A stretch of 64,000 nucleotides of DNA from Elusimicrobiota bacterium (GTDB lineage: Bacteria > Elusimicrobiota > Elusimicrobia > UBA1565 > JACRDR01), in assembly GCA_041694815.1 (NCBI GenBank), contig JBGFSC010000033.1, positions 64,001 through 128,000 on the forward strand. The letters run 5' to 3'. Positions 27,001 through 45,250 of the stretch are shown piece after piece. Position 1 is the stretch's first letter, and the number at the start of each line of letters is the position of its first letter. The notes beneath the pieces were generated by a model, which saw only the letters and a program-made list of their open reading frames with translations, was not told the origin of the DNA and made no database searches. The position numbers were made by a program, and so were the translations under genes.

Positions 27001-30000
27001 GTGCCCGACTCGACGAGGATCTGGATCGGAACCATGACATTCCCGGGCGGCGACCTGACCCCCTACATCAATACCCGTATCAATATCTCGGGGACCTTCG
27101 CGACCATCGGCGGCGACCCCAGGACCCTCGTGTTCGTTTCGAGCCCGACCTCACCGGTGCTCGTCGACGAGGTGCCCGCCTCCGGCGCCGACTTCATCAT
27201 CGAGCGCCGAGACGATTTCGGCAACGCCACCGACAGCGGGCAGACCGATGTTACCTTGAACCTGCCCGCGGCCCAGGTACAGGCACACACAGCGGCGGGA
27301 TTTACCGCGGGCGTCTCCTTCACGATCCAGGGCGATTACGGCTTCATGGATACCGGCAACAACTATATCCCGAGCCTTTCCTTCCTGGAGGGCATCAAGC
27401 AGGTGAGTTTCCGCTACCGCGACAAGATGTCCTCGTACGCGGGGCCGAGCGTCTCCTCGAACACCGGCTTCGGCGGACGTCCCGGCGCCTGGACGCTCGA
27501 GATCGTGCCGACCTCCATCGGCGTATCATCGATCAGCTTCAATCTGCAGATGGAGCCAAAGGATCCCTTCCAACTGGGCTTCGGCAATCCCAAGCGCACG
27601 CTGCAGGCTGGCAAACCGAGAGACGCCGGCAACAAGCTGCACTCCTTCCAGGCGCAGATCCATGACCGTTTCAGGAACCCGCGCGTGCCGGTCACCCCGA
27701 TCAACGTGTTCGTGTCCACCGTGACGCGCACGCCCTCGAAGTTCGCCGACTCCTTCTCCTTCTCCCTCTCGAGCACGCTGGCGGCCGGCTCTCCCCCGGC
27801 CTTCGCGGCCTCCACCGACACCTTGAGCTTCCCGTTGGACCGCTACGAGACCACGTTCTATTACCTCGACACGATGGCCAGCTCCTCCTACCCTCCGGGA
27901 CAGACGGCCCCCGTAATCGGGCTCTGGGACAAGGCCACGGTGCTATTTTCCACCTCCCAGGCCGTCAACATCACCCCCGAGGTAATCCAGGCGATCCGCG
28001 TGCGTCCCTCGACAAGCACGGCGTTGCTGGCCGGGACCACCTCGGAGATGATGGTCTTCGAATTGCAGGACCAGTTCGGCAACCCATCCGCGTTGCAATC
28101 GGGCCAGGAAGATCTCGGTCCCTCGCCGTGCCCGTTCCCGTGCGTGGAGTTCCAGCTGACCTCGGATTCCAACGGCAAGAAGCAGTTCTCGAGCCCGAAC
28201 GTCGGCGCCTTCAAGAACTCCACCGGTACGGCCTACATGGCCATCGGGCAGGCCGCGACGACCTTCTACCTCATCGACGACATGGTCTCGCCGACCACCT
28301 GGACCCTCACCGTAGAGACGGTGCGCAGCCACGGCTGGACGAAGGGCATCTCCACCTATACCGTCAAGCCCGGTCCTCCGGTCCTGGCGCTGTTTACGAC
28401 CCCGCAGCGCTACCTCATCGCGGGCACCACGGTCCAGTTGAGCACGGCGACGCAGCAGCCGATCCCGACCCCGATCACGCTGCGTCTCGTCGACGCCTTC
28501 GGCAATGTCACCTCCTCGAGCTGGGCCGCCCATACGGCGAACTTCTACTCGAACTTCACGGGCTCGACTCGCGGCGGCATCGACCCGACGCAGACGGTGG
28601 TCGACGGGGCCAACTGGCCCTTGATCGCGGCGAGCTCCTTGCCGGTGACGATTCCGGCCAACAGCAATTCGGCCACGGTGTATGTCTGGGACACCGTGGT
28701 CTCGACCCTGCCGCTGATGGCCTCGGTGATCCGTCAGGACGGCTACGCCCTGCCCCTCTCAAGCCAGAGCGTGTTCATCACGCCGGCGAAGGCCGACTAC
28801 ATCACCATCTACCATCCCTTCCCGGTGACGGCGCCCTTGAAGGTCAATACCCCCGGGATCCTGACCCGCAACGTGGGCGGCAAGAACCTGGGCGTCGTGA
28901 TGCGCGACCGCTACGGCAATATCGCCTCGGGGCATCCGATCAACAAGCAGCATTTCAGCGGTGCCGTGGTCTTCAGCACGAACCGCTCCACCAAGACGGT
29001 GAGCCTCGTCGACACGACGAACAGCACCACCACGCCGCGGATGTACGTGTTCAACGGCGAGTCCGACGCGACGCCCGGCATCTACAATGGACTGCAGATC
29101 CAAGACAGCATGGTCTCGGAACTTCAGGTTTTCGCGACCGCCTACGCCAACGCGGCGATCTGGGGCCGCACCAATGACGCCAGCCGCTCCTTCAACAACT
29201 CGCCCCCGCCGCCCTCCTCCGCCTTCTCGGACGGCAATGTCTTCACCGCCGGCCTCGTGGTCACGCCGACGGACATGGCCCCAGAACAGGACCCGGCCAC
29301 GGGCCTGGTGGTGGCGCATAAGCAGTCGTTCCAGAGCCGCGCGGTGTTGCGCCAGGGTGACGGCACGACCTCGAACTCGCCCGATCCGGTCCAGATGCTA
29401 CGGCTGTCCTTCAATATCCTGCCGTCGACGCCGACACTAAACGCCAAGCTTTCCGCCATCCGGGTGCTCAAGACGGGGTTCTTGGCCACCGATAAGGTCC
29501 CGGAGGTGGCGCTCTATTATGACGAGAACCATGACGGCCTCTTCCAGTCGGGCTCCGACGTGCGCATCGCCACGGCCGCCTTCGACGGTTCGGGCTGGCG
29601 CTTCGGCGATCCCAGCTACAATCTGACCCCGCTCAACGTGGCCGATCCGGGACGCACCTTCGTCGCCGGGGTCAATACCGAGGCGATGAATTTCTTCCTG
29701 ACCGTGCGCATTTCGTCCGCCGGTTACGGGGCGACGGAGCTGCCGAGCTCCTTGGGCATGAGCATCCCCTCGCCTTCCTACGTCACGCTGACGGGCGACA
29801 GCCTCACGGGAGTGGCGGAAAACAACTTCTCCATATTGACCGCGACGTCGGTGGTGCAGCGCGCCCCGGCGCAGATCTATGTCAAGGGCACCGATATCAA
29901 CGCCTGGTGGTCGCCTCCCTCCTTGAGCCTGTCGAGCTATAATTACGTCGACCAGGGCGCTTCGTTCGTGGGCGTGCTCAAGCTTCAGATGTGGACACCG

Positions 30001-33000
30001 AGCTTCACGGGCACGCTGGGCCGGGTCCACGTCATCCACACCGGTACGGGCTTGGACATCGATATCAAACGCCTGCATCTGTTCGTCGACTGCGATACCA
30101 ACGGGAATATCGCCAACGGCGACGGCAAGTTCCAGGCCTCCATCGACAAGGAGATCACCGACCCGGCCATCCTCGTGAAGTTCACCACCAACACCCCACG
30201 CGCCGCCGACCTCGTGCTCAAGGTCGACCCGAACGACAGCAACAATTACTCGTTCCGCACCATCACCCAGTCGACGATCACGTATTTCGTGGTCTATGAC
30301 TATGAACCCGCGGCCGTGGCGTACCTGGACCATGGAACGCAGGTCGGAACCGCCGACATCGTCCCGCTGGGTGGGGATGGCGACGTCGTGCCCTTCTCGA
30401 CCATCCTGACGACCAACGTATACGTGCGCCCGACGGCCGACCTAGCCGCCGTCGAGAAGGTCAACAACCCCGGCACCGGCAACGCCGCGGCGGTGCCCGC
30501 CTCCATCACCCAGGCCGATGCCAATCAACCGGTCATGAAGCTGACCCTGCGGACATTGAGCGGCGCGGCGAGCTGGTCGGGCCTGAAACTGGACCGTTGG
30601 GTGCCCTCGAGCTTGAGCGGCAGCGTCATCTTGAACAAGGCGGCCGACGTCAAGAATATCCAGATATGGGCGGATGTCAACGGGAACGGACTCCTGGATC
30701 CCACCACCGACCAAATCGTAAGTCCCTTGAGCGGCATCGTGCATAATTTCCCGCAAAGCACCCTGGGCGTGGCCATCAGTTCGACGCAGGCCGGGCCGCT
30801 CGACGTCGTCGTCACTAATCTCTCGGCCTTCTTCCCGGCCGACGACGTGTTCCCGTCCGTTCCCCAGCGCCTGGTGTTCGCCGACGACCAGACCGACCAG
30901 GCGAATAAGGAGGTCTTCGTCTGCACTGGCATCTCCTTCTCCTCGGGAGCCTTCACCAACTGCATGCCCGGCCAGGACCAGACCACGCGCAAAAACCACG
31001 CCGTCGGCACCGTGATTTCGGGCCCCGCGCGCGTACCCGTGCAAGGCACCGGAGGCGGACAGACGCTCACCGTCTTAAACAAGGACTTCTTCGTGGCTTA
31101 TGACTTGGATCCGTTGGCCACGGTCAACCCTTCGGCCAACCTTGGCGCTATCATCCCGACCACCCATTACTTCCTTATCCAATCCCCGAAGCGGATGCAC
31201 GACAAGGATTCTAATGGCACCGTATCGGTCGGCATCCCGCCGAACGGCAAGACGATGTCCTTGGTGTCCAACGTAGCCGAATACGCGGACAAGATCGTCG
31301 TCGTCGCCTCCAATACGGTCGACGACGTGAATCTGGGCCCCTTCCTGCAGCAGAAATCGACCGGGGCGGTGCTCAATTTCTCGCTTTACACCGACGTCGC
31401 CGACGCCTTATGGCGCTGGGTGATCGTGACGGCCACGGGCACCTCGGCTGCGGCCGGCAATGTCTCCAACGACGTGCAGCTGGTCTCCTTATGGCGTGAC
31501 GCCAACAATAACGGCAGCTTGGACGTTAACGACGTGCTGGTGGGCACGGGGACTTTCGGCAACACCGGCCAGCCGCTCACCTCTCGTGTGCAGCTGAGCA
31601 CGCCGTTTAGGCTGATGACGCAGGCCAAGGCGCCGACCCCGCAGCGCTTCTTCGTCGCTTATTATCTAAGCGCCAACGCGCAGTCCAATGACCCCATCAC
31701 CCAGGCGCCTCGTACCTTAGGGGCGGTGCTCACGGCGGGCTCCTTCCCGCAGAACAATCCCACCGTCGACGATTATTTCGCCAACGCCTTCACCCTGCCC
31801 AATATCTACAATCCCGCTTCCCCGCTTCCCTTCGAGGGCAAGTCGCGGGCCATCATCCCGGCGTCGCAGACGATGTACGTCAAGACGACGCCGATGTTCT
31901 CAAGCTCCAGCGGCACCTTCGTGGCCCCCACGGTGTCCTTCGCCGTGCCGGCCTCCACGCCCGCAGCGGTGGACGCCGCTTGGGTGATCACCTCATCGGC
32001 CGGCCTGCCCTCCGGCGGTCCCACCACCTACATGGTTGTCGACGGGGAGGTGATCAGCTATGAGGACCTGGGGCCGACATCGCTCATTCGGGTGCACCGC
32101 GGCCTCCTGGGGACTTCCGCTTCCGCCCACGGCGTCGGGGCGGTATTGGGCCCGCTGCTCGAGCAGGGTAGTCCGGCGAACGCCGTCATGAAGGTGGAGG
32201 CCTGGAGCAGCGGCTTCCAGGTGCAGTGGAACGCCTTGCGCCTACTCATCAATGCCCCCGGAGGGCTTTCGCATGTCGACGCCGACGTGGCCAAGGTCAA
32301 ATTGTGGAAATCGGTGCAGCCCTCCTCGGCCCCTATCTTCCATCGCGACCAGAATATACAGGGATCCGGGGACATACTCTTGGCGCAGGGCAACTTGGTG
32401 CAAGGAGTCGTCGACTTGAGCATCGTCGACCCCACCCTCAATTTCGCGCCCTATACCTTGGTGGGCACCTCCACGCAGACCTTCTACGTCTCGCTCGACA
32501 TCGACCCGGCGGCGCGCTACTGCTTCGTCTCGCTCAATCCACCCAACGAGGTCGTGGGCCTGCAATCCCTGAATGGATCCGACTGGGGGCTGAGCCCGCC
32601 CGGCGCCGACCACCAGATCGTGCTGCTCAATACTCCGGTGACGACGGTGCAGCCCATCGTGCCGACGCTCAACACGATGAACGCCTCGATCCTGTCGATC
32701 GCGCCGCTCTTCGCGCTTCAGAGTTCCTCCAACGTGCCCATCGCCCAGATCACGGCGACGGCCGACCGCAACACCGTGGTCTGGCAGAAGCTCAGGCTCG
32801 ACCGCATCGGCACGGGCGGAGGCCTGGACTCCGATATCTCGTTGATCAAGGTCTGGAGGGACGCCAACGGCAACAGCATACTCGACTCGACGGACACGGC
32901 GCGTAATCCCGACGGTAGCTACCCCAATCTCATAACCTTCGGCAACGAGACCTTCTCGAGCGCCACGGTGACCTTGACCTTCAAGAACCCGCCCGTCGTT

Positions 33001-36000
33001 TCGACGGCGCCGTCGAAGTACTTCGTGACCTACGACTTCTCCCAGTTCGCCATCATCGACTCCGGCGAGGGCCTGCGCATAGCCAATACGACGTACGCGA
33101 CGGTGCAGACGCCGCACCTGGTAACCTTCTCGACGGCGAATTTCCAATCGACGCTGGTCACGGTCCAAAAGGTTCCCTCCAACGTCACCTTGGGCGTCAA
33201 CGACCTTATCCTCAACAACAACGTGACCAAGCTCTCGCAGGCCCAGGCCGATGTTCCCTTCCTGAGGCTAAACCTCGCCACGGACATCTCGCTGGCCCAA
33301 TGGCAGGCCTTGCGCATCGCCCGTTCGGGAGGCAGCCAGGATTCGAGCAAGCCTTTCGGGCGCAACACCAACGTCGGCTTCATCCGCATCTGGAAGGATA
33401 TCAACCAGAACGACACGCTTGAAACGGACACCGATGTCAACGTCTCCGAGGCGAACACGGTGCTGCAGGTCGCCGTCTCCTCGGTCCAGGCGACTCCCTT
33501 CCTCATGGTTCTAGCCTCCACGGCCGGTTTCCCGGCCTCGGGCAACGGAAAAATTTACGTCAACAACGCGGAATTGATGACCTTCTCCGGCTACACGACG
33601 GTATTCGTCTCCGGCTCGAGCCGCCCGGCGGTCAATGTCTTGACCCGCGGAGACAATTTGGGCACGACCTCGACGCCGCGCCTCAATCACGCGGTGGGAT
33701 CTAGCGCGCGCAAGGTCGACCTGTTCGATCAGACCAACGACGCCAATCTTCAGACGGTGCTGGAGCTGGCGGTGCCGCAGACCATACTCCCGACGCCGCC
33801 TGTATTCTTCCTCACCTACGACATCGGGGCGACGGCCGTCAAGAACGACTCGGTGGGCGTAGACATCGCCGACCGCAATTGGGTGATCGTCAGTAACCCG
33901 AACGTCACCTCGGCCCGCGTCAACGTCAATATCAATAAGATCCTTACCCAAGGCACCACCAACCATGCCTATCCGTACACGGGCACCACGGTGTTCATCT
34001 CGCCGCTCAATCTGTCGATCGTCGGCCGCAACATCGCGCCGACCGCCGCGACGGTCAACCAGAACAATGTGCCCTTGGAGCAGTTCACGATCAAGACCTC
34101 CTCGGATTACGTGCGCATCGGCCAATTGCGGCTCAAGCAATTGGGCACGGTGCAGTCGCCTCCGACGCCCGGCGCCGGAAGGGGCGACGCCAAGCGGGTG
34201 ACGGTCTGGCTCGACAACGGCGACGGGGCCTTCACCCCGAACACGGACACCCTGATCGGCGCCCTAACCCACAACGGGTTGCCGGGCGGATCGCCTGCCT
34301 TCGACAACGGGGTGGCCTTCACCAGCCTGACGGTCAATGGGCTTCCGTACTTGACGGTCTCGACGGCTCCGGTCAACCTTTTCGTCGCCGTCGACATCTC
34401 GAGCGTGGATTTGGCGGGCAATATCACCATCGGCCATAACATCGGCTTCGCCCTGCCCAGCTTCAACGATATCTTCGGGCCCAACGCGACGACGCTCAAC
34501 GCGGCGCCCGACCCGAGCAATCAAAACCCGCTCAACGCGGCCTCCTCGCTGGTCCAGATCTCGCCGGCCATCATTCCGCTGTCGAATATCCTGCCCAAGA
34601 TCGCGATGGCCTCCAACGGATACCCGGCCTACGTGCTGCAGGATTCCTCGGGCAATGTGATCCTGGATTCCAACGGCATGCCCATCGCCGATGCGAGCAA
34701 ATGGATATACCTGCAGGGTTCTACGGAGCCGCTCGTCGATATCAACGGAGACGGCCAGCCCGACAACTTCGCCTACCCGCCGGACACGACCCCCCTGCCG
34801 CCAGGCGTCAAGCCCGGACCCCTGAAATTCATCAGCTTCGACGGCACGCGCAACCCCGCCTTCGACCTGGACGGCGACAAGCTCCTCGACATCGACATCA
34901 ATCGCGACGGCATACCCGACGCGGTCGTCAACGACGGCGCCGGCAAGCCCATCTACTTCCTGCGCGACATATTGGGCAATACTTACCCCGTTTCGGACCA
35001 GGCCCTGGCGGTGACGGCCTGGAGCAACAATACGACGAAGCTGGAAGCCGCCTGGTCAATCCCCACCTCTACCGTCACCGGTTTCCAGCTGGCGGCCGGG
35101 GTCAATTACTCGAGCCCCACATCTTTCTCCAACGGCTGGCGCACGATCGGCTCGAGTACCACCGGCATGATCGACGGGCTCGGCCTGCCCGTGCCAAAGG
35201 TCACGCGCCTGACGGCCAATATCTCGCAGACCGATACGATCATCTCGGTCGAGGCGGCGGGCAACCTCGTCTCGGTAGGCAAGATCGTCGTGGGCTCGGA
35301 GATCATCGGCGTCACAAGGATCAGCGCGACCCAGTTCCAGGTCACCGCCTTGGAGGGCTGCCCGAACAACAGCGGGCGCGGCTGCGACGGCTCCTTGCCG
35401 CAACCCCATCTCAAGAACGAGCTCGTCAGTGACCAGGCCGTGTTTGTCTCCGTGCGTGGTTTCAACGGGCCGGCCTCGGCCCCGAGTGGCTACGTGCCCG
35501 GTCCCACGGGAAGGCCGCTGCTGGTCTACCGCATCGACACCACGCCCCCCAATGCTCCGGCCAACGCCGCGCCGAACGTGGCGCCCGGAACCCCGGCCGG
35601 CGGCTCCTTTGAAATCAGCTGGGACGCCTCGGTCGACGCTGAGTCGAGCGTGATGGCCTACCAGATCCAGGAGCGCGTCGGCACCGATCCCGTCTGGCGC
35701 AGCATCGCGATGATCCCGGCCGTCAAATCCAACGGCGCGATCAACCGTTCCTATAACGTCGGCAACCCCGCGATCAACGCGGCCGAGAAACCGAGGGCCT
35801 CCGGCCAATTCTATTCCTACCGGGTGCGGGCCTTCAACTACGCCGGTATCCCGTCGGAATACTCGAGCGAATCGAGGCCCGTGGCGACCTCGCTCATCTC
35901 CTCGCCGATCTCGAATGTGTCGAACTTCCCGAACCCCTTCGACAGCCGCAAGGGCGGCCCGGAGGGTAAGACCGTCATTACCTACACCTTGGGGGCCGAC

Positions 36001-36225: not shown

Positions 36226-36228
36226 TTC

Positions 36229-36310
36229 AGGTGCCAGGCATCCACTTTCTACACTTTGTTGAAATTCTCGAGAAAGTAGAGAAAGTGTAGAAAGTGAATG
36301 TCTGGCACCT
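36229..36310. repeat. Long imperfect inverted repeat (29-bp arms) after the giant gene; terminator or REP-like element
   Basis: aggtgccaggcatccactttctacacttt (36229-36257) pairs with aaagtgtagaaagtgaatgtctggcacct (36282-36310), with one G-U pair and one mismatch. Confidence 0.8.
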
Positions 36311-36345
36311 AAATATTCTTCCTTAATAGGGTATTGACAAAGCCC

Positions 36346-36373
36346 TTGACAAAGCAAGTGGACCTGTTATACT
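36346..36373 (+). promoter_or_regulatory. sigma70-type promoter with extended -10
   Basis: TTGACA (36346-36351), 16-nt spacer, TATACT (36368-36373) preceded by TGn; a second TTGACAAAGC copy starts at 36334. Confidence 0.75.
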
Positions 36374-36449
36374 AGGGGGGTAAGCACTCCTGCAGCCGGT
36401 CAAGACAGCGTGTTACGGGGCTCATAGGCGCTGTCATTCGCTTTCCGGC

Positions 36450-36533
36450 TGCGGGCGATAATAGCAAACCCGCCGCAAGACGGGGGCGCAAAGCCGTGGT
36501 CCCGGTTTCCGGGATGCCAGGCTGCCGAATGCG
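36450..36533 (+). ncRNA. GEMM-I cyclic dinucleotide riboswitch, c-AMP-GMP (3',3'-cGAMP)-type variant
   Basis: cgataatagcAAAcccgcc-GCAA-gacgggggcgcAAAgcc-gtggtcccgg-ttt-ccgggatgccaggc-tgccga: P2 with AAA bulge and GNRA loop, CGCAAAGCC junction, P3 stem and 3' GCCGA. A at 36463 occupies the Vc2 G20 position. Confidence 0.88.
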
Positions 36534-38144
36534 ATGGCCCGAAGAGAACGATTAGGGGCTTGTCCCCTGCTTCAGAACTGCCTCAAGAGCGCGGCCTTGG
36601 CCGGCTTTTGGGGCGTCGTCGTTTTAGGGGCCATCCCGGCGTTCGCCGGGGAAGGAGGCGGGCAGGCGGGCACCTTCCTTTCCTATGGGGTCGGCGCCCG
36701 CGCCCTGGCGATGGGCGGTGCCTTCTACGCCATCTCAGACGACGCTACCGCGGGGTACTGGAACCCGGCCGGCTTGGCCCAGGTTCAACGCAAGGAGCTC
36801 ACTACGATGCAGGCCACGCTCTTCGCCCAGACCAAGCTCACCTATATGGGCTTCGCCTATCCCCGCGCCGCCGGCGGCACCTGGGCCTTCAGCCTGACGC
36901 AGTTGGTCTCCTCCGGTTTCGAGAAGGTCAGCGCCACCTTCGACCCCGCCACCAGCGAGCCCACCGGGGTGCAGACCGCGGGCAGCTTCTCCGACCAACA
37001 GACGGCCTACGGCCTGTCCTGGGGAAAGCAGGTCACCGACACCATGTCCTTCGGAACGACGCTCAAGCAGGTCAAGCGCCAGCTCGACAATTCCGTCGAC
37101 AGCCATATGGCCATGGACATCGGCATGATGCGGCAGATGTCGAGTCTCCACAGGCTCGGCATCGGCGTGCAGAACGTCTTTAGCCGCAGCTCCGGGGACA
37201 CCGACGATAAACTGCCCGTCACGGCGAAGCTAGGCAACAGCCTGACCCTCTTTAAGGGTCGCCTTCTCTTCGGCCTCGACCTCGCCAAGCCACAGACCAG
37301 CGGCTTGGGCTGGCGCTTCGGCGGCGAGTTCTGGGCCACCCGCTGGTTTCCGCTCCGCTTCGGCCTGATGGGTTCGCCGGGCATCCAGGAGACCGATTTC
37401 GGCTTCGGCCTCGCCTTCCGCTACTTCAACCTCGACATCGCCAACGGCATCCACGATCTCGGCGCCAGCACCCGCATCTCGCTGACGGCCAAGTTCGGCA
37501 AGTCCAAGAACGAGGTTTCGGGAGAGAAGATCAGCGCGCTCATCCAGGCGGGCTTCGAGGCCTTCAAGGAGGGCAATTTCCGCCTCGCCACGGTGCGCTT
37601 CACGCAGGCGGCCGACGCCGACCCGGAGAACCGCGACGTGCGCGCGATGCTCACCCGCCTGCAGACGGCGGTGACCTACGTGCCCGAGGCCCAGGGCGGC
37701 GAGGAGATACAGACCTACATCCGCAAGGGCGTGATCGCCTACGTCGACGGCCGCGACCTGCGGGGCGCGGTCAATTCCCTGCGCTACGCCTTCAACAAGA
37801 ACCCGCGCGACGAGAAGCTGCTCTCCTTGCTCAACTTAGTCGAGCGCGAGACGGGGGCCTCGGAGATGACCCGCAAGCCGGAGGGGCCCGAGCAGTTCAC
37901 CTTCGTCGATCAGAAGATCTTCGACGCGCGCCAGGCCGTCTACGACGGCAAGTACGACCTGGCCATCCGCCGCACGCAGGACGTGCTCGACCTGGAGCCC
38001 AACAACGTCACGGCGCTCGAGATCATGGGCAGCGCCTTCTTCCTGATGGAGGAGCGGGCCAAGGCGAAGGCGGTCTGGAAGAAGGTGCTCCAGATCGACC
38101 CGAAGAACCGGGTGGTGCGCGAATTCCTCCAGCAGATTCAGTAA
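36534..38144 (+). CDS. PorV/PorQ (UPF0164)-family outer-membrane beta-barrel fused to C-terminal TPR repeats
   Basis: Signal peptide ending AFA; hallmark 'FL..GVGARALAMGGAF.A..DDATA.YWNPAGLA'; amphipathic beta strands to about 37500, then helical TPRs (AFKEGNF...DPEN; LDLEPNN...LQIDPKN). The exact start is uncertain. Confidence 0.85.
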   Translation: MARRERLGACPLLQNCLKSAALAGFWGVVVLGAIPAFAGEGGGQAGTFLSYGVGARALAMGGAFYAISDDATAGYWNPAGLAQVQRKELTTMQATLFAQTKLTYMGFAYPRAAGGTWAFSLTQLVSSGFEKVSATFDPATSEPTGVQTAGSFSDQQTAYGLSWGKQVTDTMSFGTTLKQVKRQLDNSVDSHMAMDIGMMRQMSSLHRLGIGVQNVFSRSSGDTDDKLPVTAKLGNSLTLFKGRLLFGLDLAKPQTSGLGWRFGGEFWATRWFPLRFGLMGSPGIQETDFGFGLAFRYFNLDIANGIHDLGASTRISLTAKFGKSKNEVSGEKISALIQAGFEAFKEGNFRLATVRFTQAADADPENRDVRAMLTRLQTAVTYVPEAQGGEEIQTYIRKGVIAYVDGRDLRGAVNSLRYAFNKNPRDEKLLSLLNLVERETGASEMTRKPEGPEQFTFVDQKIFDARQAVYDGKYDLAIRRTQDVLDLEPNNVTALEIMGSAFFLMEERAKAKAVWKKVLQIDPKNRVVREFLQQIQ

Positions 38145-38145
38145 A

Positions 38146-38208
38146 CGGCGACGAGCCAGGCATTGCCGCCTGCGGAGACCTCCTACGGCAATGCCTGGCT
38201 CGTCGCCG
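38146..38208. repeat. Perfect 23-bp inverted repeat (intergenic hairpin)
   Basis: cggcgacgagccaggcattgccg (38146-38168) and its exact reverse complement (38186-38208), 17-nt loop; no immediate U-tract. Confidence 0.9.
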
Positions 38209-38251
38209 GGCGACTTGAAAATTTAATATGGGGCCCCTACACTTATCGAGT

Positions 38252-40180
38252 ATGCTCCGCTTAAGGATCGTGGCGGCCTTATTGGCCGTTCACGCGGCGA
38301 TGCCCGTCGGCGCCCGGGCGGTCGTCGACGCTCCCGACCTGTCGCTGCTCGAGAGAGAGACCGCCCTCAAGCGCGAGATCGAGAACAAGATCCAAAGCGA
38401 TATTCTCGACCCGATACTGGGCAAGGACCGGGCGAAGGTATTCATGGACATCCAGTTGGAGGTCATGGCCCAGCAGCGCGAGAATCAGCGCACCGGCGCC
38501 GGCATGGCGGAACGCTACAAAGAGAAGCTCGGTCCCAATCCGGGCGCCAGCTTTCCCATGCAATTCATCCTGCCCGGGGTGCCCAAGCCGAAGAACGTCA
38601 ACAACGCCCCGACCCCCAAGCCGGAGGCCTCGCAGGGCCAGGTCGCCTCGCAGGAGAAGGCCGACAAGGAGGAGATATTCTCCCTGCAGACCACGGTCAA
38701 GCGCCTGCTCGTGACCGTGATCCACGACGATAGCCTGCCGCAGCCCAAACTCGAGATGGTGCGCCAGCGCATCATTGATGCCCTCACGCAGTTTAAGCTC
38801 GGCAAGGACCAGATCGTTTTCCGACCCACGAATTTCAAGACGGCCGTATGGCTCGACGATTTGAAGAACCCGAGCGTCTACATCCCGCTGCTCTACGCGC
38901 TCCTCCTGCTGCTGCTGCTGCTGTTCCTCTTCGGACCGCTGGCGGGTTTCATGCGCCGCTATGTCGAGGCCATCCGGGAGAAACCCGCCGCGGAGGTGAA
39001 CGTCGAATCCCAGATCGAACAGCCGGAGGAGGAGGGGCGGGGCCTCGGGGGCCCCGAAAAGAGCGAGCTCGACATCATGCTCGGGCGCAAGCCGACCGAG
39101 CCGCCGCCGCCGTCGGAGGAGGACGAGGCCATGAAGAAATTTGAGCCGTTCGCCTACATCAACGAGGAGAACCTCAAGCGCCTGGCCAATCTGTTCATGC
39201 TGCGCCGCGAGGAGCCCTGGCTGATCGCCGTCGTCTTAAGCTACTTGAAGCCCGAGTTCGCGCGGCAGGTGCTAACGCAGTTGCCCGTGGAGCTGCAGGC
39301 CAAGGTCGCCCTGGAGGCCCTGAAGGTGCGGCAGGTGACCCGCGAGCAGGTGGTCGCCATCGACGCAGATGTCAAGGAGTCGATCGACTTCGTCGTCGGC
39401 GGTATGGAGCGCCTTACCCAGATGCTCGAGGAGTCCGACACGCAGACCCGCAAGAACATCCTGGAGTACCTAAAGAACGAGAAGCCCATGGTCTACGAGC
39501 GGGTGCGCAAGTTCATCCTCACCTTCGAGGACGTGGTGGGTTTCCCGGACCGCGAGATGCAGGCCATCGTCCGCGAGCTCAAGACCGACGCGATGGCGCG
39601 CGCCCTGCAGGGAGCCTCGCCGGAGGTGGTCAACAAATTCCTTTCCAACATGTCGGGGGGCGCGGCCTCCCTGCTCAAGGAGTCCATGGAGTACAGCAAG
39701 GGCTTGACCGAGGCCCAGGTGGAGGAGGAGCGGAGCAAGATTATCGATACGATCAAGACGATGGAGAAGGAAGGCAAGATCGCCATACGCGAGGGGCGTG
39801 GCCAGCTCGAGGGCTTCCAGGAGGAGCTAGCTATCGAGCGCGTCGAGCGCCTCGGCGCGCGGGCGCAGGCGAAGGCGGCGCTGCCCGCTCCCGCCCCGGC
39901 CGCCGCTTCAGACCCTGCCGCCGCGCAGCAATTCCTACAGGCAGGAGCGCAGGCGCACGACGCAGGCCGTTTTGAGGAGGCCATGGCCCAGCTGCGCCAA
40001 GCCCTGGATTTGGACCCGAATCTCTGGCAAGCTTATCAGTACCTTGGCAACGCCCTGCTGCAAACAGGTCGTGCGACGGAGGCGCTGGGCTGCTACGAGA
40101 AGCTGCTTGAGATCAATCCTGATCCCCAACTGCGGTCGTGGGTCGAGAGCTTCAAGGCCCAGTTGAAAACGGCATCATGA
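38252..40180 (+). CDS. Fusion protein: signal peptide + FliF C-terminal ring-building (RBM3)-like domain + TM helix + FliG middle/C-terminal domains + TPR
   Basis: MLRLRIVAALLAVHAAMPVGARA signal (alternative ATG at 38228). 'EIENKIQSDILDPILGKDRAKV...PGVP...VKRLLVTVIHD...KDQIVFRPTNF' is FliF_C-like; poly-Leu TM; 'PFAYI...EEPWLIAVVLSYL...GGMERL...LTFEDV...DREMQAIVRE...ALQGAS...NMS..AASLLKE...EKEGKI' is FliG-like; terminal TPR pair. Confidence 0.8.
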   Translation: MLRLRIVAALLAVHAAMPVGARAVVDAPDLSLLERETALKREIENKIQSDILDPILGKDRAKVFMDIQLEVMAQQRENQRTGAGMAERYKEKLGPNPGASFPMQFILPGVPKPKNVNNAPTPKPEASQGQVASQEKADKEEIFSLQTTVKRLLVTVIHDDSLPQPKLEMVRQRIIDALTQFKLGKDQIVFRPTNFKTAVWLDDLKNPSVYIPLLYALLLLLLLLFLFGPLAGFMRRYVEAIREKPAAEVNVESQIEQPEEEGRGLGGPEKSELDIMLGRKPTEPPPPSEEDEAMKKFEPFAYINEENLKRLANLFMLRREEPWLIAVVLSYLKPEFARQVLTQLPVELQAKVALEALKVRQVTREQVVAIDADVKESIDFVVGGMERLTQMLEESDTQTRKNILEYLKNEKPMVYERVRKFILTFEDVVGFPDREMQAIVRELKTDAMARALQGASPEVVNKFLSNMSGGAASLLKESMEYSKGLTEAQVEEERSKIIDTIKTMEKEGKIAIREGRGQLEGFQEELAIERVERLGARAQAKAALPAPAPAAASDPAAAQQFLQAGAQAHDAGRFEEAMAQLRQALDLDPNLWQAYQYLGNALLQTGRATEALGCYEKLLEINPDPQLRSWVESFKAQLKTAS

Positions 40181-40192
40181 TAGGAGCGTCCC

Positions 40193-41566
40193 GTGTCCGA
40201 AGAAAAGAAAGACGATAAGAAGCCCTTTTCCTTGCCTCCTCTTCCCGGAGGCCTGAGGCTGCCGCCCATGCCGGGGATGGGGGCCGGCTCCCTGCGTCCC
40301 GGCCTGCCACTGGGCCCGGGGCCCGCGGCGGCGGTGGCGCCCTCCGCCGTTCCGGAGCCGCCGAAGCCGCCGGAACCACCGGGGGCCGAGCTGGAACGCA
40401 AGCTGGCCGAGACCGAAAAGCGCCTGCAGGAGGAGAGGGAGAAGGTGCTCTTAGCCAATCTCAAGGCGCAGGAAGAGAAGGTCTACGCGGCGAAGGTAGA
40501 GACGGCGATCAAGGAGGTGCAGGAGAAGCTGCGCCGTGACCGCCGGGACGCCGACGCCGAGGAGGCCAGGATACGCTTGGAGGCCCGCATCCAGGAGCTC
40601 GAACAGAAACTCATCGCCGAGCGCGAGACATGGGTCACTACGCTCAAGGGGCAGATGCAGAGCCGCCAGGCGCAGGATCGCGAGATCGAGACGCAGTTCA
40701 CCTCGCGGATGCAGGAGATGGAGCGGCGCTGGCTGGAGGAGAAGGCGCATTGGCAGAAATCCCTCATGGGCAAGGAGGAGGAGAACCGCGCCCTCAGGAA
40801 CATCGTCGAGAAGCTCAAGGGGGCGGACCTCGAGCTGCAAAAGGTGTCGCAGGAGAAGAAGCTCCTGGAGGTCCGGATCGCCGAACTGGGTCAGGAGGCC
40901 GCCGCCGCCCAATCGCAGGCGCGCGCCATGGCCGAGCATGAGAAGGAGTATTTCGCACTCAAGGCGGAGCTGACGTTGGCCCGCGAGCAGGCGCGGCTCA
41001 AGCAGGAGGCCCTCGAGGGGGAGCTCAAGAGGCTCAAGGACGAGAACGAGCCCCTGCGCCGCGACGCCCAGGGCGCCTACGCACGAGCCCGGGCCGAGGC
41101 CGACCTCGAGATCCATACCCACCGCGAGCGCTTCGAGCGGCAGGCCCAGGCGGCGCGGGAGGAGGCCGCCTCGGAAATCCAAAGGCTCAAGGGGCAATTG
41201 GAGGCCGCCAGCGCCTCGCTGCAGCGCATGCGGGCCGTCGGCGCGGCGTTGGAGAGGCAGGCCGCCGCCCTGCGGGTGCAGGCCGAGGAGGCGGGCAAGG
41301 CCAAAAAGGAGCTCGAGCAGATGAACGAGCGCTACAAGGCGGAGTTTCTCGTCCTGCAGCGCCGCTGGCTCGAGCGCGAAAAGGAGATACGCCAGGAGTC
41401 GCAGCGGGCCGTCGAGCAGATGCGGCGGGAGGCCGAGGCGGCCGTCGCCCAGGCGAGGAAGGATTTGGAGGAGGAGCGCCGCAGGACGGCGCTGCTTGAG
41501 GGCGAGATCCGCCACCGCCAGGTCGCGGGGCTGCTCAAGCCCGAGCCTCCGGCGGCGCCGGCATGA
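40193..41566 (+). CDS. Long coiled-coil protein with Pro-rich N-terminus, probably cytoplasmic
   Basis: AGGAG then GTG start; about 65 aa Pro/Gly-rich followed by about 380 aa E/K/R/Q/A/L heptads; no signal or TM; ATGA overlap with flbD. Confidence 0.8.
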   Translation: MSEEKKDDKKPFSLPPLPGGLRLPPMPGMGAGSLRPGLPLGPGPAAAVAPSAVPEPPKPPEPPGAELERKLAETEKRLQEEREKVLLANLKAQEEKVYAAKVETAIKEVQEKLRRDRRDADAEEARIRLEARIQELEQKLIAERETWVTTLKGQMQSRQAQDREIETQFTSRMQEMERRWLEEKAHWQKSLMGKEEENRALRNIVEKLKGADLELQKVSQEKKLLEVRIAELGQEAAAAQSQARAMAEHEKEYFALKAELTLAREQARLKQEALEGELKRLKDENEPLRRDAQGAYARARAEADLEIHTHRERFERQAQAAREEAASEIQRLKGQLEAASASLQRMRAVGAALERQAAALRVQAEEAGKAKKELEQMNERYKAEFLVLQRRWLEREKEIRQESQRAVEQMRREAEAAVAQARKDLEEERRRTALLEGEIRHRQVAGLLKPEPPAAPA

Positions 41567-41787
41567 TCCGCTTGACGCGACTCAACGGCTCGCCGATCAC
41601 GGTGAACGCCGAGCTCATCGAGTCGATCGAGGGGGAGGCGGACACCGTCCTGTCCTTGGCGACGGGCAACCGCTACGTCGTCAAGGAGTCCGTCGAGGAG
41701 GTCGTCTCCAAGGTGGTCGAATACCGCAAGAAGGTCAACGCGGAGCGTCCCGTGACGAATCCCATTCAGGGGTTCGAGCGGAAGTAG
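41563..41787 (+). CDS. flbD: Flagellar FlbD/SwrD family protein
   Basis: MIRLTRLNG....VNAELIESIE...DTVLSL.TG.RYVVKES.EEV...V.EYR pattern; flbD-motA-motB order. Confidence 0.9.
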   Translation: MIRLTRLNGSPITVNAELIESIEGEADTVLSLATGNRYVVKESVEEVVSKVVEYRKKVNAERPVTNPIQGFERK

Positions 41788-41800
41788 GGAAGGGGCCAAC

Positions 41801-42616
41801 ATGGATATCGCAACAGTGATGGGCATCATCGTCTTCTTCGGACTGACCGTATCGTCGATATGGATCGCCGAAGGCGCGGCGGGATTTAAGCCTTTCGCCA
41901 ACCTGGAGGCCTTGCTCATGGTGATGGGGGGCACTTTCTGCGCCACCCTGGTCAATTACCCGCTCAACCAGGTGGTCGGCCTGGGTGGGATCCTGCGCAA
42001 GGTGATGCGCTCCTCCGGCGAGGACACCTCCAAGATCGTCGGCACCTTCGTCGCCTTGTCACAGAAGGCCAAGCGGGAAGGCTTCCTCGCGCTGCAAGGC
42101 GACGTGCGCGGGCTCGACAACGATTTCCTGAGGCGGGGGGTGCAGCTCGTCATCGACGGGGCCGACCAGGAATTCATCCGGAACATGCTCGAGACCGAGA
42201 TTGGCTTCCTCCGCGAACGGCATAAGGTCGGCCAGGAGATATTCAACGCCATGGGCACCTACGCCCCCGCCTTCGGCATCATCGGTACCGTGCTGGGCAT
42301 GATACTCATGCTCTCCTCGATCGATGACGTCGCTCAGGTCCCGCGCCGTATGGCCCTGGCCCTGGCGGCCGCCTTCTACGGGCTCGGCTCCGGTTACATG
42401 ATATTCCTGCCCATGGGCGGCAAGCTTCGGCGGCGTTCCGAGGAGGAGATGCTCGTCAAGGAGATCGTCATCCGCGGGGTGCTGCTCCTGCAAAGCGGCG
42501 CGACCCCGAGCGTGGTGGAGGCCAATCTCAAGGCTTACTTGGAACCGGCCAAGCGCGTATTGATCAAGACGGCCGAGGAAGCGACGCCCGCCGCCCCGGC
42601 GCCCGGAGCAAGATAA
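41801..42616 (+). CDS. motA: MotA/PomA-family stator subunit
   Basis: MDIAT..G start, 'GGT..ATL', 'KAKREGFLAL', 'FL.RG.QLVIDG', 'APAFGIIGTVLGMI', 'FYG.....IFLP..GKL'. Confidence 0.92.
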   Translation: MDIATVMGIIVFFGLTVSSIWIAEGAAGFKPFANLEALLMVMGGTFCATLVNYPLNQVVGLGGILRKVMRSSGEDTSKIVGTFVALSQKAKREGFLALQGDVRGLDNDFLRRGVQLVIDGADQEFIRNMLETEIGFLRERHKVGQEIFNAMGTYAPAFGIIGTVLGMILMLSSIDDVAQVPRRMALALAAAFYGLGSGYMIFLPMGGKLRRRSEEEMLVKEIVIRGVLLLQSGATPSVVEANLKAYLEPAKRVLIKTAEEATPAAPAPGAR

Positions 42617-43359
42617 TGCCCCTACGGGCGCCCAAGGGCTTCATCGACGAGACGGACCCCAAGGTCTGCCAGATTGGGCACCCCGCGCCCCCCTGGCTCG
42701 TCAACTACGCCGATCTCATGACCGAACTGGTCTGCTTCTTCGTCATTCTCTACGCCTTGTCGGCGGCACTCAACAAGAACGTGCAGCAGGCCGCCAAGCA
42801 GGTCAAGGAGATGATCGAGAACAAGGAAGTCTCGGGTGAGGTGAAGGTCGACCGCGAAGGGCTCAAGATATCGCTGGAGGAGCAGGGAGAGAACGTCTTT
42901 TTCGAGAGCGGTTCGGCGGAGCTTACCCCGCGTATGCGCGTGCTCATGAACAAGCTCGCCCCGGTGCTGACTAAGCTCGTGCAGCAGCACGAGATCATCA
43001 TCGAGGGGCATACCGACAATATCCCGATCAAGAACGACCTCTACCTCTCCAATTGGGAGCTCTCCTCCGAGCGCGCCACCAATGTCGTCGAATACCTGAT
43101 CATGGCGCACGGCTTCCCGCCATCCAAGATGGGGGCCATGGGGTACGGTGAGAACCGTCCGGTCGTTGCCAACGACACGCCGGCCAATCGCGCGCGCAAC
43201 CGCCGGGTGGTTTTCTTCGTCAAGAACGCACCGATCGCGCCGCCGGCGGCCGCCAAGGCGCCCGCGGCCGTGCCCGCGCAGGCACAGGCTCCGCTTCCCG
43301 CCTCTAAGGGGGCGCTCGAGACGCTTCGAGGCGTCTTGTCCCGATTTACTCCAAAATGA
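42616..43359 (+). CDS. motB: MotB-family stator subunit with OmpA-like peptidoglycan-binding domain
   Basis: 'WLVNYADLMTELVCFFVILYA' TM with the conserved Asp; 'FESGSA.L', 'IEGHTDN.PI', 'SNWELSS.RA', 'GYGE.RP', 'RA.NRRV'. Confidence 0.92.
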   Translation: MPLRAPKGFIDETDPKVCQIGHPAPPWLVNYADLMTELVCFFVILYALSAALNKNVQQAAKQVKEMIENKEVSGEVKVDREGLKISLEEQGENVFFESGSAELTPRMRVLMNKLAPVLTKLVQQHEIIIEGHTDNIPIKNDLYLSNWELSSERATNVVEYLIMAHGFPPSKMGAMGYGENRPVVANDTPANRARNRRVVFFVKNAPIAPPAAAKAPAAVPAQAQAPLPASKGALETLRGVLSRFTPK

Positions 43360-43372
43360 TTCAATAAGACGA

Positions 43373-44071
43373 ATGCCCCGCCTCGTTCTATTCCTTTCCT
43401 TAATAATGACCTTGAGCGCCTGCTCAGGCCTGCAATTGGGCAAGGGCAGGAAGAAGGTTGTCTTGTTCGATTACGCGGAAGGGCGCGTCGTCGACGTCGC
43501 GATTACGGACCGGCGCACGGGGGCCACGGAATTGCTGTTCGTATCGATGCCGAAGCGCTCCCTGTTCTTGGAAGGCTATATTCAGGGAATCGTCACCGAT
43601 TACAACGACAACCCGATCCAGGGGGTGATCGTGCGTGCCTTGGCCGAGGGCGAGCAGAAAATGATCGAAAGCGGAAAGGCGGCCTTCCAGAGCTCATCCT
43701 TCGACGCGGGCGTCAGCGACACCAACGGCATCTACCGCATCCGCTTTTCTTTGCCCGTGATCAATCGCAAGATCGACGTGCGCGGGAAATTCCTGTACAA
43801 TCCGGGCTGGGAGCAGGAGAAGGTCAATCTCGGCAAGGCGTACGAGCCCCAGACCAAGGAATCCCCCTTCCGGCTCATCTTCGATGAGGCGCAGGGAATG
43901 CTCGTATTCGCCGAGGGGATCCGCAAGGCCATCGTGATGCCCGTGCTCAGCAACGCCCCTCCCAAGACGCAGCTGCCCGGCGTCAAGCCCGTCGAGGCCC
44001 CGAAGGAAGAGAAGAAGCCGGAAAAGCCTGCGGAAGACGACCTGTTCAAGAGCTTCGGCTTCGGCCCCTAG
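43373..44071 (+). CDS. Lipoprotein with carboxypeptidase-regulatory-like beta-sandwich domain
   Basis: Start reassigned to ATG 43373: MPRLVLFLSLIMTLSA-C lipobox; 'IQGIVTDYNDNPIQGVIV...SDTNGIYRI'. Confidence 0.7.
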   Translation: MPRLVLFLSLIMTLSACSGLQLGKGRKKVVLFDYAEGRVVDVAITDRRTGATELLFVSMPKRSLFLEGYIQGIVTDYNDNPIQGVIVRALAEGEQKMIESGKAAFQSSSFDAGVSDTNGIYRIRFSLPVINRKIDVRGKFLYNPGWEQEKVNLGKAYEPQTKESPFRLIFDEAQGMLVFAEGIRKAIVMPVLSNAPPKTQLPGVKPVEAPKEEKKPEKPAEDDLFKSFGFGP

Positions 44072-44086: not shown

Positions 44087-45250
44087 ATGAAACGCCGAGT
44101 CTACCTCGACCACAACGCGACCACGCCCATACGTCCCGAGGTGCTGGAGGCGATGTTGCCCTACCTGCGGGAGCGCTACGGCAATCCCAACAGCCCCTAT
44201 TGGCTGGGCCAGGAGAGCCGGGCGGCGGTGGAGAAGGCCCGGGCCCAGGTCGCGCGGCTCGTCAACGCCAAGCCCTCGGAGATCGTATTCACCTCCTGCG
44301 GCTCGGAATCGGACGTGCTGGCCATCGCCGGCGCGGCCCAAAGCGCCTTCGAGCGCAGCAGGGGCGCCAAGAGGCATATCATCGCCTCCAGTATCGAACA
44401 CGACGCCGTGCGCGGCATCCTCGAGACCCTCCGCCGCAGGGGCTTTTCGATCTCCATCTTGCCGGTAGACGAGCATGGGCGCGTGGACCCGCAGAGCCTC
44501 CGGAAAGCGATTCAAGACGACACCGCCCTGGTCTCGGTGATGCACGCCAACAACGAGGTCGGCACGGTGCAGCCGATCCGCGAGCTGGCCGCGGTCTGCC
44601 GTCAGGAAGGGGTGCCGTTCCACACCGACGCGGTGCAGTCCGCCGGCAAGATACCCATCGATTTTCGCGATATCGGGGCGGATTTCTTGGCGATCTCGGG
44701 CCATAAGATCAACGCCCCGAAGGGGGTCGGGGCCTTGGTCGTGCGGGAGGGCGCCGCACTTTCTCCGGTGATCACCGGCCATCAGGAAAAAAACCGGCGC
44801 GGCGGTACGGAGAACGTGGCCTCGATCGTCGCGCTGGGCAAGGCCTGCGAGCTCGCGCAGTCCGAGCTCGCCGCCCACGCGAAGCAGCTTTCCGTCCTGA
44901 GAAAGCGATTGGAGGAGGGCTGCCTCAAGATACCGCGCTCGAGGCTCAACGGGCATCCGACCGAGCGCCTGCCGGGCACCTGCCATGTCTCCTTCGAGGG
45001 CGTCGACGGATTCCAGCTCGTCGTGGCCTTGGATCTGGAGGGCGTTTGCGCCTCCAGCGGTCCGGCCTGCTCCAGCGGCGTGTCGGAGCCGTCCCATGTG
45101 CTCGAGGCGATGGGGGTGGAGCGCCGCTGGTCGACCGGAAGCCTGCGCCTGTCGCTGGGTTGGGGATCCACCGCGGAGGATGTCGAGTGCCTGCTCGAGG
45201 TTCTGCAAGGTGCGGTGGATCGACTGCGGAAAGTAGGAGTGTCCATATGA
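44087..45250 (+). CDS. iscS: Cysteine desulfurase (IscS/NifS class I)
   Basis: YLDHNATTP, NNEVG, HTDAVQ, SGHK (PLP Lys), GGTEN, SSGPACSS catalytic Cys. Confidence 0.93.
   Translation: MKRRVYLDHNATTPIRPEVLEAMLPYLRERYGNPNSPYWLGQESRAAVEKARAQVARLVNAKPSEIVFTSCGSESDVLAIAGAAQSAFERSRGAKRHIIASSIEHDAVRGILETLRRRGFSISILPVDEHGRVDPQSLRKAIQDDTALVSVMHANNEVGTVQPIRELAAVCRQEGVPFHTDAVQSAGKIPIDFRDIGADFLAISGHKINAPKGVGALVVREGAALSPVITGHQEKNRRGGTENVASIVALGKACELAQSELAAHAKQLSVLRKRLEEGCLKIPRSRLNGHPTERLPGTCHVSFEGVDGFQLVVALDLEGVCASSGPACSSGVSEPSHVLEAMGVERRWSTGSLRLSLGWGSTAEDVECLLEVLQGAVDRLRKVGVSI

Follow-up and report, generated by a model that had tools for sequence, protein, structure and literature searches.

Seven genes of an uncultured Elusimicrobiota bacterium form an operon that combines stator and rotor parts of a flagellar motor with an outer-membrane barrel and lies next to the gene for a giant exported protein. 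On balance, we favour the reading that they encode a rotor-stator module which is driven by ions, independent of the flagellum and tied to a single barrel-adhesin pair. The operon lies in a stretch of 64,000 nucleotides (nt), here called the window, which is C38:64001-128000 of a 2.77-Mb, 54-contig genome that is 97.8% complete (assembly GCA_041694815.1, contig JBGFSC010000033.1). Judged by their sequences, MotA and MotB are, together with FlbD, a flagellar-type stator. A FliF-FliG fusion with tetratricopeptide repeats (TPRs) is predicted to unite in one protein a ring-builder, namely the ring-building motif 3 (RBM3)/collar region of FliF, and a torque receiver, namely the middle and C-terminal domains of FliG. 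Both belong to a conserved operon under a predicted cyclic di-GMP (c-di-GMP) riboswitch, which is genetically tied to a PorV-family barrel with a putative periplasmic TPR arm and to an upstream giant protein tagged with a C-terminal domain (CTD) like that of the type IX secretion system (T9SS). To our knowledge, FliG and flagellar-type MotAB are otherwise known only as parts of the flagellum.

The features of the operon and of its upstream neighbour are, in window positions:

1..36225, + strand: 3' part of the giant exported protein gene, from open reading frame (ORF) calls; whole gene C38:58886-100225
35893..36222, + strand: CTD-like beta-sandwich at the C-terminus of the giant protein, end ...RKIGVIH (FlgD_ig, PF13860)
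36227..36311, no strand assigned: long near-perfect inverted repeat directly after the stop codon of the giant gene, read from the sequence
36346..36373, + strand: sigma-70-type promoter-like site, TTGACA-16-TATACT with TG extension (11/12 matches)
36454..36530, + strand: predicted c-di-GMP-I-GGC riboswitch aptamer (RF03167, 60.7 bits vs gathering score 59)
36534..38144, + strand: PorV/PorQ-family outer-membrane barrel (about residues 45-321) with C-terminal TPR domain (about 325-536) (NF033709 and TPR families)
38228..40180, + strand: FliF-FliG-TPR fusion, 650 residues (Pfam FliG_M 42.9 bits, FliG_C 91.9 bits, TPRs)
40193..41566, + strand: coiled-coil protein, 457 residues, proline-rich (PPLPG-type) N-terminus followed by a long coiled coil
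41563..41787, + strand: FlbD/SwrD-family small protein (PF06289, 89.6 bits vs 24.7, model positions 1-58 of 59)
41801..42616, + strand: MotA, flagellar-type stator subunit (PF01618 MotA_ExbB, 96.4 bits vs 22.9)
42616..43359, + strand: MotB with plug, conserved channel Asp and OmpA-like peptidoglycan-binding domain (PF13677, PF00691)
43373..44071, + strand: lipoprotein with lipobox, beta-sandwich core, disordered tail and C-terminal ...DLFKxFGFG motif (lipobox and alignment)

From the fusion onward the seven genes, which run from the barrel to the lipoprotein in the order given, are separated by 12, -4, 13, -1 and 13 nt. The promoter, the riboswitch, the seven named genes and these gaps of at most 13 nt are all found where the first-pass annotation had placed them.

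Rotor, stator and the search for flagellar genes

The fusion protein consists of a signal/transmembrane (TM) helix, a periplasmic domain of about 180 residues, a TM helix, an acidic glycine-rich linker, FliG_M, FliG_C and TPRs. Its FliG part is readily recognized in the PDB (FliG 3ajc, E 6.4e-34), and the part related to FliF is detectable only by profile or fold. A profile of the first 300 residues, built from 20 orthologues, aligns to residues 221-432 of E. coli FliF (hhalign probability 87%, E 3.9e-6); searched against the PDB, the same profile finds residues 222-466 of Salmonella FliF (6scn, E 4.8e-5) and then SpoIIIAG. In a Foldseek search with an AlphaFold model of the fusion (predicted local distance difference test (pLDDT) 71, predicted TM-score (pTM) 0.43), the top 16 rows were all chains of the FliF membrane-supramembrane ring (MS-ring), with E-values from 1.1e-7 to 6.4e-3. 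By profile and model, the FliF part appears to be the RBM3/collar region only, without RBM1 and RBM2. The initial description as a FliF/FliG-TPR fusion thus stands for the FliG middle and C-terminal domains and the TPRs, and for FliF it narrows to this region. Of the 338 positions of the fliG model, the fusion matches only 111-333 and therefore has no FliG-N. In flagella FliG-N binds the tail of FliF; here the covalent join of FliF and FliG takes the place of this contact. An invariant LPGVPxP stretch of the fusion was considered as a new TPR-docking peptide and set aside, as it aligns with the FliF collar stretch GVPGALSNQP.

Engineered and deletion-type FliF-FliG fusions of Salmonella and Vibrio are reported to form rings (PMC11481574, 10.1101/2023.02.06.527414). 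They resemble the protein described here in having MS-ring and FliG functions on one polypeptide. Whereas the engineered proteins join full-length FliF to FliG in flagellated cells, that of the operon is a natural fusion of RBM3 with FliG middle and C-terminal domains only, in cells predicted to be non-flagellated.

The best NCBIfam models for MotA of the window are MotP, MotA and PomA, all below the curated equivalog cut-offs where compared (MotP 216.5 bits vs 394; MotA 207.9 vs 340), and its nearest PDB entries are flagellar MotA/PomA, with E-values from 6.6e-53 (MotA 6ysf) to 7.7e-24. In the following, residues are numbered as in the E. coli K-12 genes. The equivalent of MotB D32 is Asp in 13 of 14 Elusimicrobiota MotB sequences, the exception having a second MotB copy with Asp, and MotA P173 and P222 are kept in 15/15 MotA sequences. 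Because these residues are kept, the ion path of MotAB looks intact at the sequence level. Charge pairs between rotor and stator are described for MotA R90/E98 with FliG R281/D288/D289 (PMC12505986). On the stator side, R90 is K or R in 13/15 sequences. E98 is Q in six of ten orthologues and also in 3/3 flagellar MotA of the same phylum; therefore this change is not specific to the module. On the rotor side, the D288 position is E in all 20 fusion orthologues.

No match was found in the genome to the export-gate families FHIPEP (FlhA, PF00771) and FliP (PF00813), to YscJ_FliF (PF01514, the N-terminal part of FliF), to Flg_bb_rod (PF00460) and Flagellin_N (PF00669), or to FliMN_C (PF01052); for each of these searches the controls were positive in 4/14 genomes. 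This extends to the whole genome what had been noted for the window alone, namely that a flagellar set is missing: the models for export gate, rod, cytoplasmic ring (C-ring) and flagellin are without match.

In a phylum sample of 151 Elusimicrobiota genomes drawn evenly, FliG_C occurs in 57 genomes (45 of 63 genera), mostly on ORFs of 480-700 codons. FHIPEP occurs in four genomes, all among these 57, so that FliG_C is found without FlhA in 53. Two heavily sampled families are nearly devoid of FliG_C (0/45 in f4 and 1/44 in f12). In two genomes (G062 and G102) the fusion is missing, and a single MotA lies near a canonical fliF-fliG-fliI cluster. The flagellated genome G064 has such a canonical cluster with its own MotA beside it and, on other contigs, a fusion-FlbD-MotA-MotB set and a further paralogue; MotA of this fusion set is 74% identical to that of the window. 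By gene content, the fusion module is independent of the flagellum.

Barrel, giant protein and riboswitch in the window and its relatives

The barrel passes the PorV family model NF033709 (98.4 bits vs cut-off 90) and does not reach the strict PorV equivalog NF033710 (23.1 bits vs 250). Its linkage to the fusion was followed in two sets of loci. In the first, 20 loci around FliG_C matches from many families, the barrel-TPR gene stands directly upstream of the fusion in 18, the exceptions being the G064 locus and a divergent paralogue. The second set was collected from named records of metagenome-assembled genomes with the full-length fusion alignment as the query, and comes partly from the same genomes. 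Its 77 loci are titled Elusimicrobia or Endomicrobia, except for a few recorded merely as 'bacterium' or 'uncultured bacterium' and for one Clostridia locus, where the FliG-type match is short; since the pattern used for searching was specific to the family, the range outside Elusimicrobiota is not delimited. In 71 of these 77 loci the fusion has at least 550 residues. Among the 62 loci with at least 1.8 kb of upstream sequence, the barrel-TPR gene adjoins the fusion in 58 by a strict rule and in three more with overlapping ORF calls; only L068 is without it. A CTD-like ORF ends at most 1.5 kb upstream of the barrel gene in 34/57 loci. Twenty of these ORFs are large, most of them longer than 2,000 codons and running off the locus, and the other 14 encode small exported proteins of 129-262 residues with little beyond the CTD. 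These CTD-like ORFs have R-K-[IV]-G-[VI]-I-H as their C-terminal residues. The proposed linkage of CTD-like protein, PorV-family barrel-TPR, fusion and MotAB is thus borne out across many Elusimicrobiota families. Outside the phylum, TPR proteins of Myxococcota with YscJ_FliF_C are a lead, if a weak one (0.84).

Downstream of the fusion, the 48 loci with at least 8.5 kb of flank contain the coiled-coil gene 46 times, MotA 32 times, FlbD and MotB 31 times each and the lipoprotein 25 times. Most misses are Endomicrobia-type loci, in which genes of about 1,600 and about 1,000 codons fill the flank. The former encodes a protein of about 1,600 residues with C-terminal TPRs, inserted between the fusion and the coiled-coil gene (L036:9870-14813, L040:9711-14519, L041:9682-14322 and L042:1845-6650 on the - strand), whose tail resembles those of the fusion and the barrel. 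In Endomicrobia-type relatives an exported CTD (FlgD_ig) protein of 129-158 residues with the end RKIGVIH is encoded between the riboswitch and the barrel-TPR gene (L035:1343-1777, L036:5793-6191, L040:5691-6152, L041:5654-6130 and L042:10138-10527 on the - strand).

Scans of the coiled-coil protein with Pfam and NCBIfam models gave no family match, and neither a signal peptide nor a TM helix was found; the PPLPG-type motif at the N-terminus is present in 67 of 83 coiled-coil proteins. The lipoprotein shows a weak match to CarboxypepD_reg. A model of it (pLDDT 69) has no Foldseek match at E <= 0.001, and VIA-align returned only generic beta-sandwiches (best Z 6.8), among them carboxypeptidase-D transthyretin-like domains (Z 5.9, root-mean-square deviation 2.5, 75 aligned).

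The gene preceding the operon is a single ORF of 13,779 codons, the 5' part of which lies outside the window. The encoded protein has a signal peptide at its N-terminus. Its end had been read as a T9SS-CTD-like domain, which stands in so far as FlgD_ig is passed (30.4 bits vs cut-off 27), and falls short in that the T9SS type-A model TIGR04183 is missed (16.9 bits vs 23). The end also resembles the C-terminal region of the PorU model (21.5 bits), and in relatives, ORFs that precede the barrel gene terminate in the same motif. The inverted repeat behind the stop codon, which has only sub-threshold Rfam matches of the hairpin type (microRNA hairpins) on both strands, is probably the terminator hairpin of the giant gene.

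Promoter-like sites are enriched in the region (three observed vs a mean of 0.3 in shuffles). The riboswitch was assigned to its class (Rfam clan CL00126) by a covariance-model score of at least the gathering score, and binding of the ligand is predicted. Its aptamer ends 3 nt before the start codon of the barrel gene, and a riboswitch of the c-di-GMP-I class heads the operon in 17 of 18 related loci, in two cases as a tandem. In the minimum-energy fold the closing helix of the aptamer covers the 16 nt before the start codon, albeit weakly, with a z-score of about 0; this covering suggests that c-di-GMP could act as an off switch at translation. The giant gene is preceded, outside the window, by two small genes and a c-di-GMP-I riboswitch of its own (L016:13294-13371, RF01051, 56.9 bits vs 35). 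In the 83-nt gap between barrel and fusion (region 38146-38243), a hairpin-like stretch that weakly matches an Rfam hairpin at 38146-38208 and a weakly promoter-like site (38215-38243, 9/12 matches) were seen; the motor genes may have a transcription start of their own. Behind the lipoprotein gene, here as in many close relatives, follows a gene for a class-V aminotransferase (cysteine desulfurase-like, 44087-45250), which is probably merely a conserved neighbourhood. Two further ORFs of the window, 47395-49341 (+ strand, 648 residues) and 49358-51163 (- strand, 601 residues), have no Pfam match at E <= 0.01.

Related modules and T9SS-like genes in the genome

In the whole genome FliG_C was found four times and MotA_ExbB eight times. 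On contig C15 a fusion of 514 residues is followed by MotA and two MotB genes, and this set converges on the operon of a CTD protein of 3,522 residues. On contig C41 the order is a protein with CHU_C type-B CTD (31.8 bits vs 27), a PorP/SprF-TPR barrel (33.5 vs 22.3), a histidine kinase, a fusion (YscJ_FliF_C 37 vs 23.8), an HATPase_c protein and another kinase. By its gene order and domain matches, this paralogous module repeats the logic of the window with other members of the families: CTD protein, barrel-TPR and fusion. The type of CTD goes along with the type of barrel, a type-A-like end being paired with a PorV-family barrel in the window (C38) and a CHU_C type-B end with a PorP/SprF-like barrel on C41. 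In Bacteroidota, type-B CTD proteins are reported to bind PorP-like barrels, as SprB binds SprF (PMC9143113). Contig C7 starts inside a fusion gene, which is followed by an HATPase_c protein, MotA and MotB. Adjoining this module is a gene for a PilB-type ATPase with an N-terminal response-regulator receiver domain (C7:6341-8125).

With jackhmmer, run over all six-frame ORFs of the genome, 21 CTD-like ORFs and 22 barrels of the PorV/PorP-like kind were found. A CTD ORF immediately precedes 13 of these 22, in many cases overlapping the barrel gene by 4 nt; examples of barrels are C40:8719-9654, C19:36167-37075 and C44:90748-91683. Only two of these 13 pairs (on C38 and C41) adjoin a fusion gene. 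From the gene arrangement, a cargo with its own barrel appears to be a recurrent theme of the genome, with a motor added in a few cases.

A SprA/Sov-like outer-membrane protein of 1,829 residues is encoded at C19:8829-14318 (TIGR04189, E 9.4e-42, 142.5 bits, below the cut-off of 200). A SprA-like gene of about 1,800 codons was found in 141/151 genomes of the phylum sample, in none of them above the curated cut-off; this hints at a T9SS-like translocon throughout the phylum. PorV-family barrels occur in 144/151. GldL (TIGR03513) and GldM (TIGR03517) gave no match in the genome, but no control genome matched either. The PorU sortase model (NF033707) was matched only at positions 955-1094, by the ends of large ORFs; its peptidase part has no match in the genome.

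Possible roles of the module

Compared with the flagellar motor core (MotA5B2, FliG, FliF MS-ring, FlbD/SwrD), the module has the same type of MotA, the plug, channel Asp and OmpA-like domain of MotB, the FliG middle and C-terminal domains, the RBM3/collar of FliF including the counterpart of GVPGALSNQP, and the order flbD-motA-motB. It differs in that no export gate, rod, hook, filament or FliM/N was found, that the fusion has neither RBM1 and RBM2 nor FliG-N and bears TPRs behind FliG-C, and that rotor and stator are accompanied by a PorV-family barrel, a coiled-coil protein and a lipoprotein in an operon under control of a c-di-GMP riboswitch. With the T9SS and gliding machinery of Bacteroidota it shares the arrangement of a giant putative adhesin, here with a CTD-like end, beside its own PorV/PorP-family barrel. 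PorE of Bacteroidota is described as a lipoprotein with TPR, CRD and OmpA_C domains (PMC5053529), and the same kinds of domains are here spread over the barrel-TPR protein, the lipoprotein and MotB. Unlike in Bacteroidota, the motor would consist of MotAB of the flagellar type and a FliG ring instead of GldLM, the barrel bears a TPR arm of its own, no peptidase part of PorU was found in the genome, and the SprA-like and CTD matches remain under the curated cut-offs. In the Agl-Glt system of Myxococcus, an ion-driven motor of the inner membrane is connected with barrels of the outer membrane and a surface adhesin by way of TPR and periplasmic proteins. The design is thus similar, but the motor AglRQS is of the TolQR/ExbBD type and is not known to have a FliG or FliF domain; AglRS has been placed in a non-flagellar clade (PMC12505986).

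According to the interpretation that we favour, the fusion would form a ring in the inner membrane that is turned by MotAB stators. The periplasmic collar of the fusion would meet the TPR arm of the barrel, the lipoprotein or both, and motion or force would pass through the periplasm by way of the RBM3 ring, the TPR arm and the lipoprotein to the barrel-held adhesin. On the other side of the membrane, the proline-rich coiled-coil protein and the TPRs of the fusion would make up a cytoplasmic face replacing FliM/N. Such a machine would move, tension or load-sense the adhesin at the cell surface and would not be a general engine for the export of CTD proteins. Movement, tensioning or load-sensing of one particular adhesin is possible. 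A bolder form of this idea, which we hold only tentatively and think somewhat doubtful, is that Elusimicrobiota evolved, from flagellar rotor and stator parts and independently of GldLM and AglRQS, a third type of motor for surface adhesins, in which an RBM3-FliG ring turned by MotAB drives a PorV-type barrel via the TPR arm and moves or winds the 13,779-residue adhesin under c-di-GMP control.

Some of our results speak against a rotor-stator module of this kind. The model of the fusion is only of moderate quality, and its TM-scores to FliF are low (0.16-0.46). In all 20 fusion orthologues the FliG R281 position is G, N or S, and the R297 position is T, S or N in the fusion orthologues. Since flagellar FliG of the same phylum keeps R281 and has K at 297 in 3/3 cases, torque generation could be altered or lost. 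The interface of rotor and stator thus seems partly kept and changed in a way specific to the module. A co-varying lost salt bridge of MotA E98-to-Q and FliG R281-to-G was considered and rejected, as 3/3 flagellar MotA have Q while their FliG keeps R. The EHPQR motif of FliG binds FliM. This motif of FliG_M is lost in the window protein and its close orthologues, where it reads E-E-P-W...E, which fits the absence of a FliM match; to judge by the sequences, the cytoplasmic face of the fusion is unlike a C-ring. Linkage is not complete either: the fusion of G064 has no barrel gene upstream, and in 16 of the 48 loci with at least 8.5 kb no MotA lies within the downstream flank. Finally, three cassettes of the genome (C50:7666-13990, C2:333-5244 and C19:26354-32246) combine genes for a CTD protein and a barrel-TPR protein with an adjacent histidine kinase gene and contain neither FliG nor MotAB. 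Barrel-TPR genes with a kinase behind them are as compatible with signalling as with mechanics, and these motor-less cassettes may signal across the envelope.

They also bring into play a trans-envelope sensor of load or contact, in which the ring idles under stator drive and binding of the adhesin alters the load, which is read by kinases into c-di-GMP signalling. Besides the three cassettes, the histidine kinases and HATPase_c proteins beside the fusion in the modules on C41 and C7 and the riboswitch of the operon fit this explanation. Yet the operon of the window itself contains no kinase, and the family scans found no output domain on the coiled-coil protein. FlbD has been linked to torque in B. 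subtilis (PMC13740483), and a full stator with such a torque-linked protein would be costly for a mere sensor; we consider this explanation quite unlikely. A somewhat better, albeit still low, probability is given to a dedicated secretion engine, in which MotAB and the FliF-FliG ring replace GldLM/PorLM and energize a T9SS-like export of the giant CTD protein through the SprA-like translocon. It agrees with the SprA-like gene, the many barrels and CTD-like ORFs of the genome, the missing matches to GldL and GldM and the position of the operon directly after the 13,779-residue cargo gene. However, the GldL/GldM searches had no positive control, the SprA-like match stays under its cut-off, and most CTD-barrel pairs of the genome have no motor nearby. 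The distribution in family f4, which has no FliG_C in 45 genomes, is also against it: SprA-like genes occur there in 44/45, PorV-family barrels in 45/45 and large ORFs, of up to 6,015 codons, with FlgD_ig-type domains in 12/13 genomes. CTD-type cargo, barrels and a putative translocon are thus present without the motor, which argues against the motor as a general energizer of export and weakens the suggestion of the first-pass annotation that MotAB and a FliF-FliG ring take the place of GldLM/GldKN. A special need of the largest cargo for a motor would be compatible with this distribution and is possible.

For two simpler explanations the probability is much lower. The genes might serve an envelope maintenance of the Tol-Pal kind, in which the stator would power the tethering of the outer membrane or the handling of lipoproteins and the adhesin gene would be a neighbour by chance. 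The peptidoglycan-binding domain of MotB, the lipoprotein and the TPR-bearing outer-membrane protein would suit this role, but four other ExbB/TolQ-type genes exist in the genome, we know of no role of the FliG torque domain in Tol or Ton systems, and a CTD-like gene, be it giant or small and CTD-only, accompanies the barrel gene in 34/57 loci. This makes such a role very improbable. Hardly credible is that we are dealing with ordinary or decaying flagellar genes, i. e. parts of a flagellum encoded elsewhere or its relics. The domains of MotA, MotB, FlbD and FliG are of the flagellar type and 4/151 Elusimicrobiota are flagellated; against this stand the failure to find any other flagellar family in the 97.8%-complete genome, the intact ORFs, the gene order kept across many families together with non-flagellar partners and a riboswitch, and the separate flagellar fliF, fliG and motA of G064.

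A description of this operon was not found in full-text literature searches, which did not extend to the supplements of a 2022 preprint, where gene tables may be given. That preprint (10.1101/2022.07.08.499144) reports that non-flagellated Elusimicrobiota carry homologues of motAB, flbD and fliG, with an unclear role; the accessible text of a 2025 survey of MotAB (PMC12505986) does not mention the phylum.

If the rotor-stator module is borne out, a torque pair tied to outer-membrane and adhesin genes would mean that the rotor-stator unit lends itself to re-use as an engine in its own right. This bears on the evolution of the flagellar motor, of which the module would be a minimal ring and stator without an export apparatus, and on how outer-membrane processes are powered by ion-driven motors. 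For structural studies of how rings assemble and torque is transferred, the naturally occurring RBM3-FliG fusion offers a compact object. Should the more tentative idea of a third surface-adhesin motor prove true, cells without a flagellum would have a means of gliding or of an active grip on surfaces or prey. The module may explain how free-living Elusimicrobiota could move or attach, including the lineages that are reported to be magnetotactic yet without flagella (10.1101/2022.07.08.499144).

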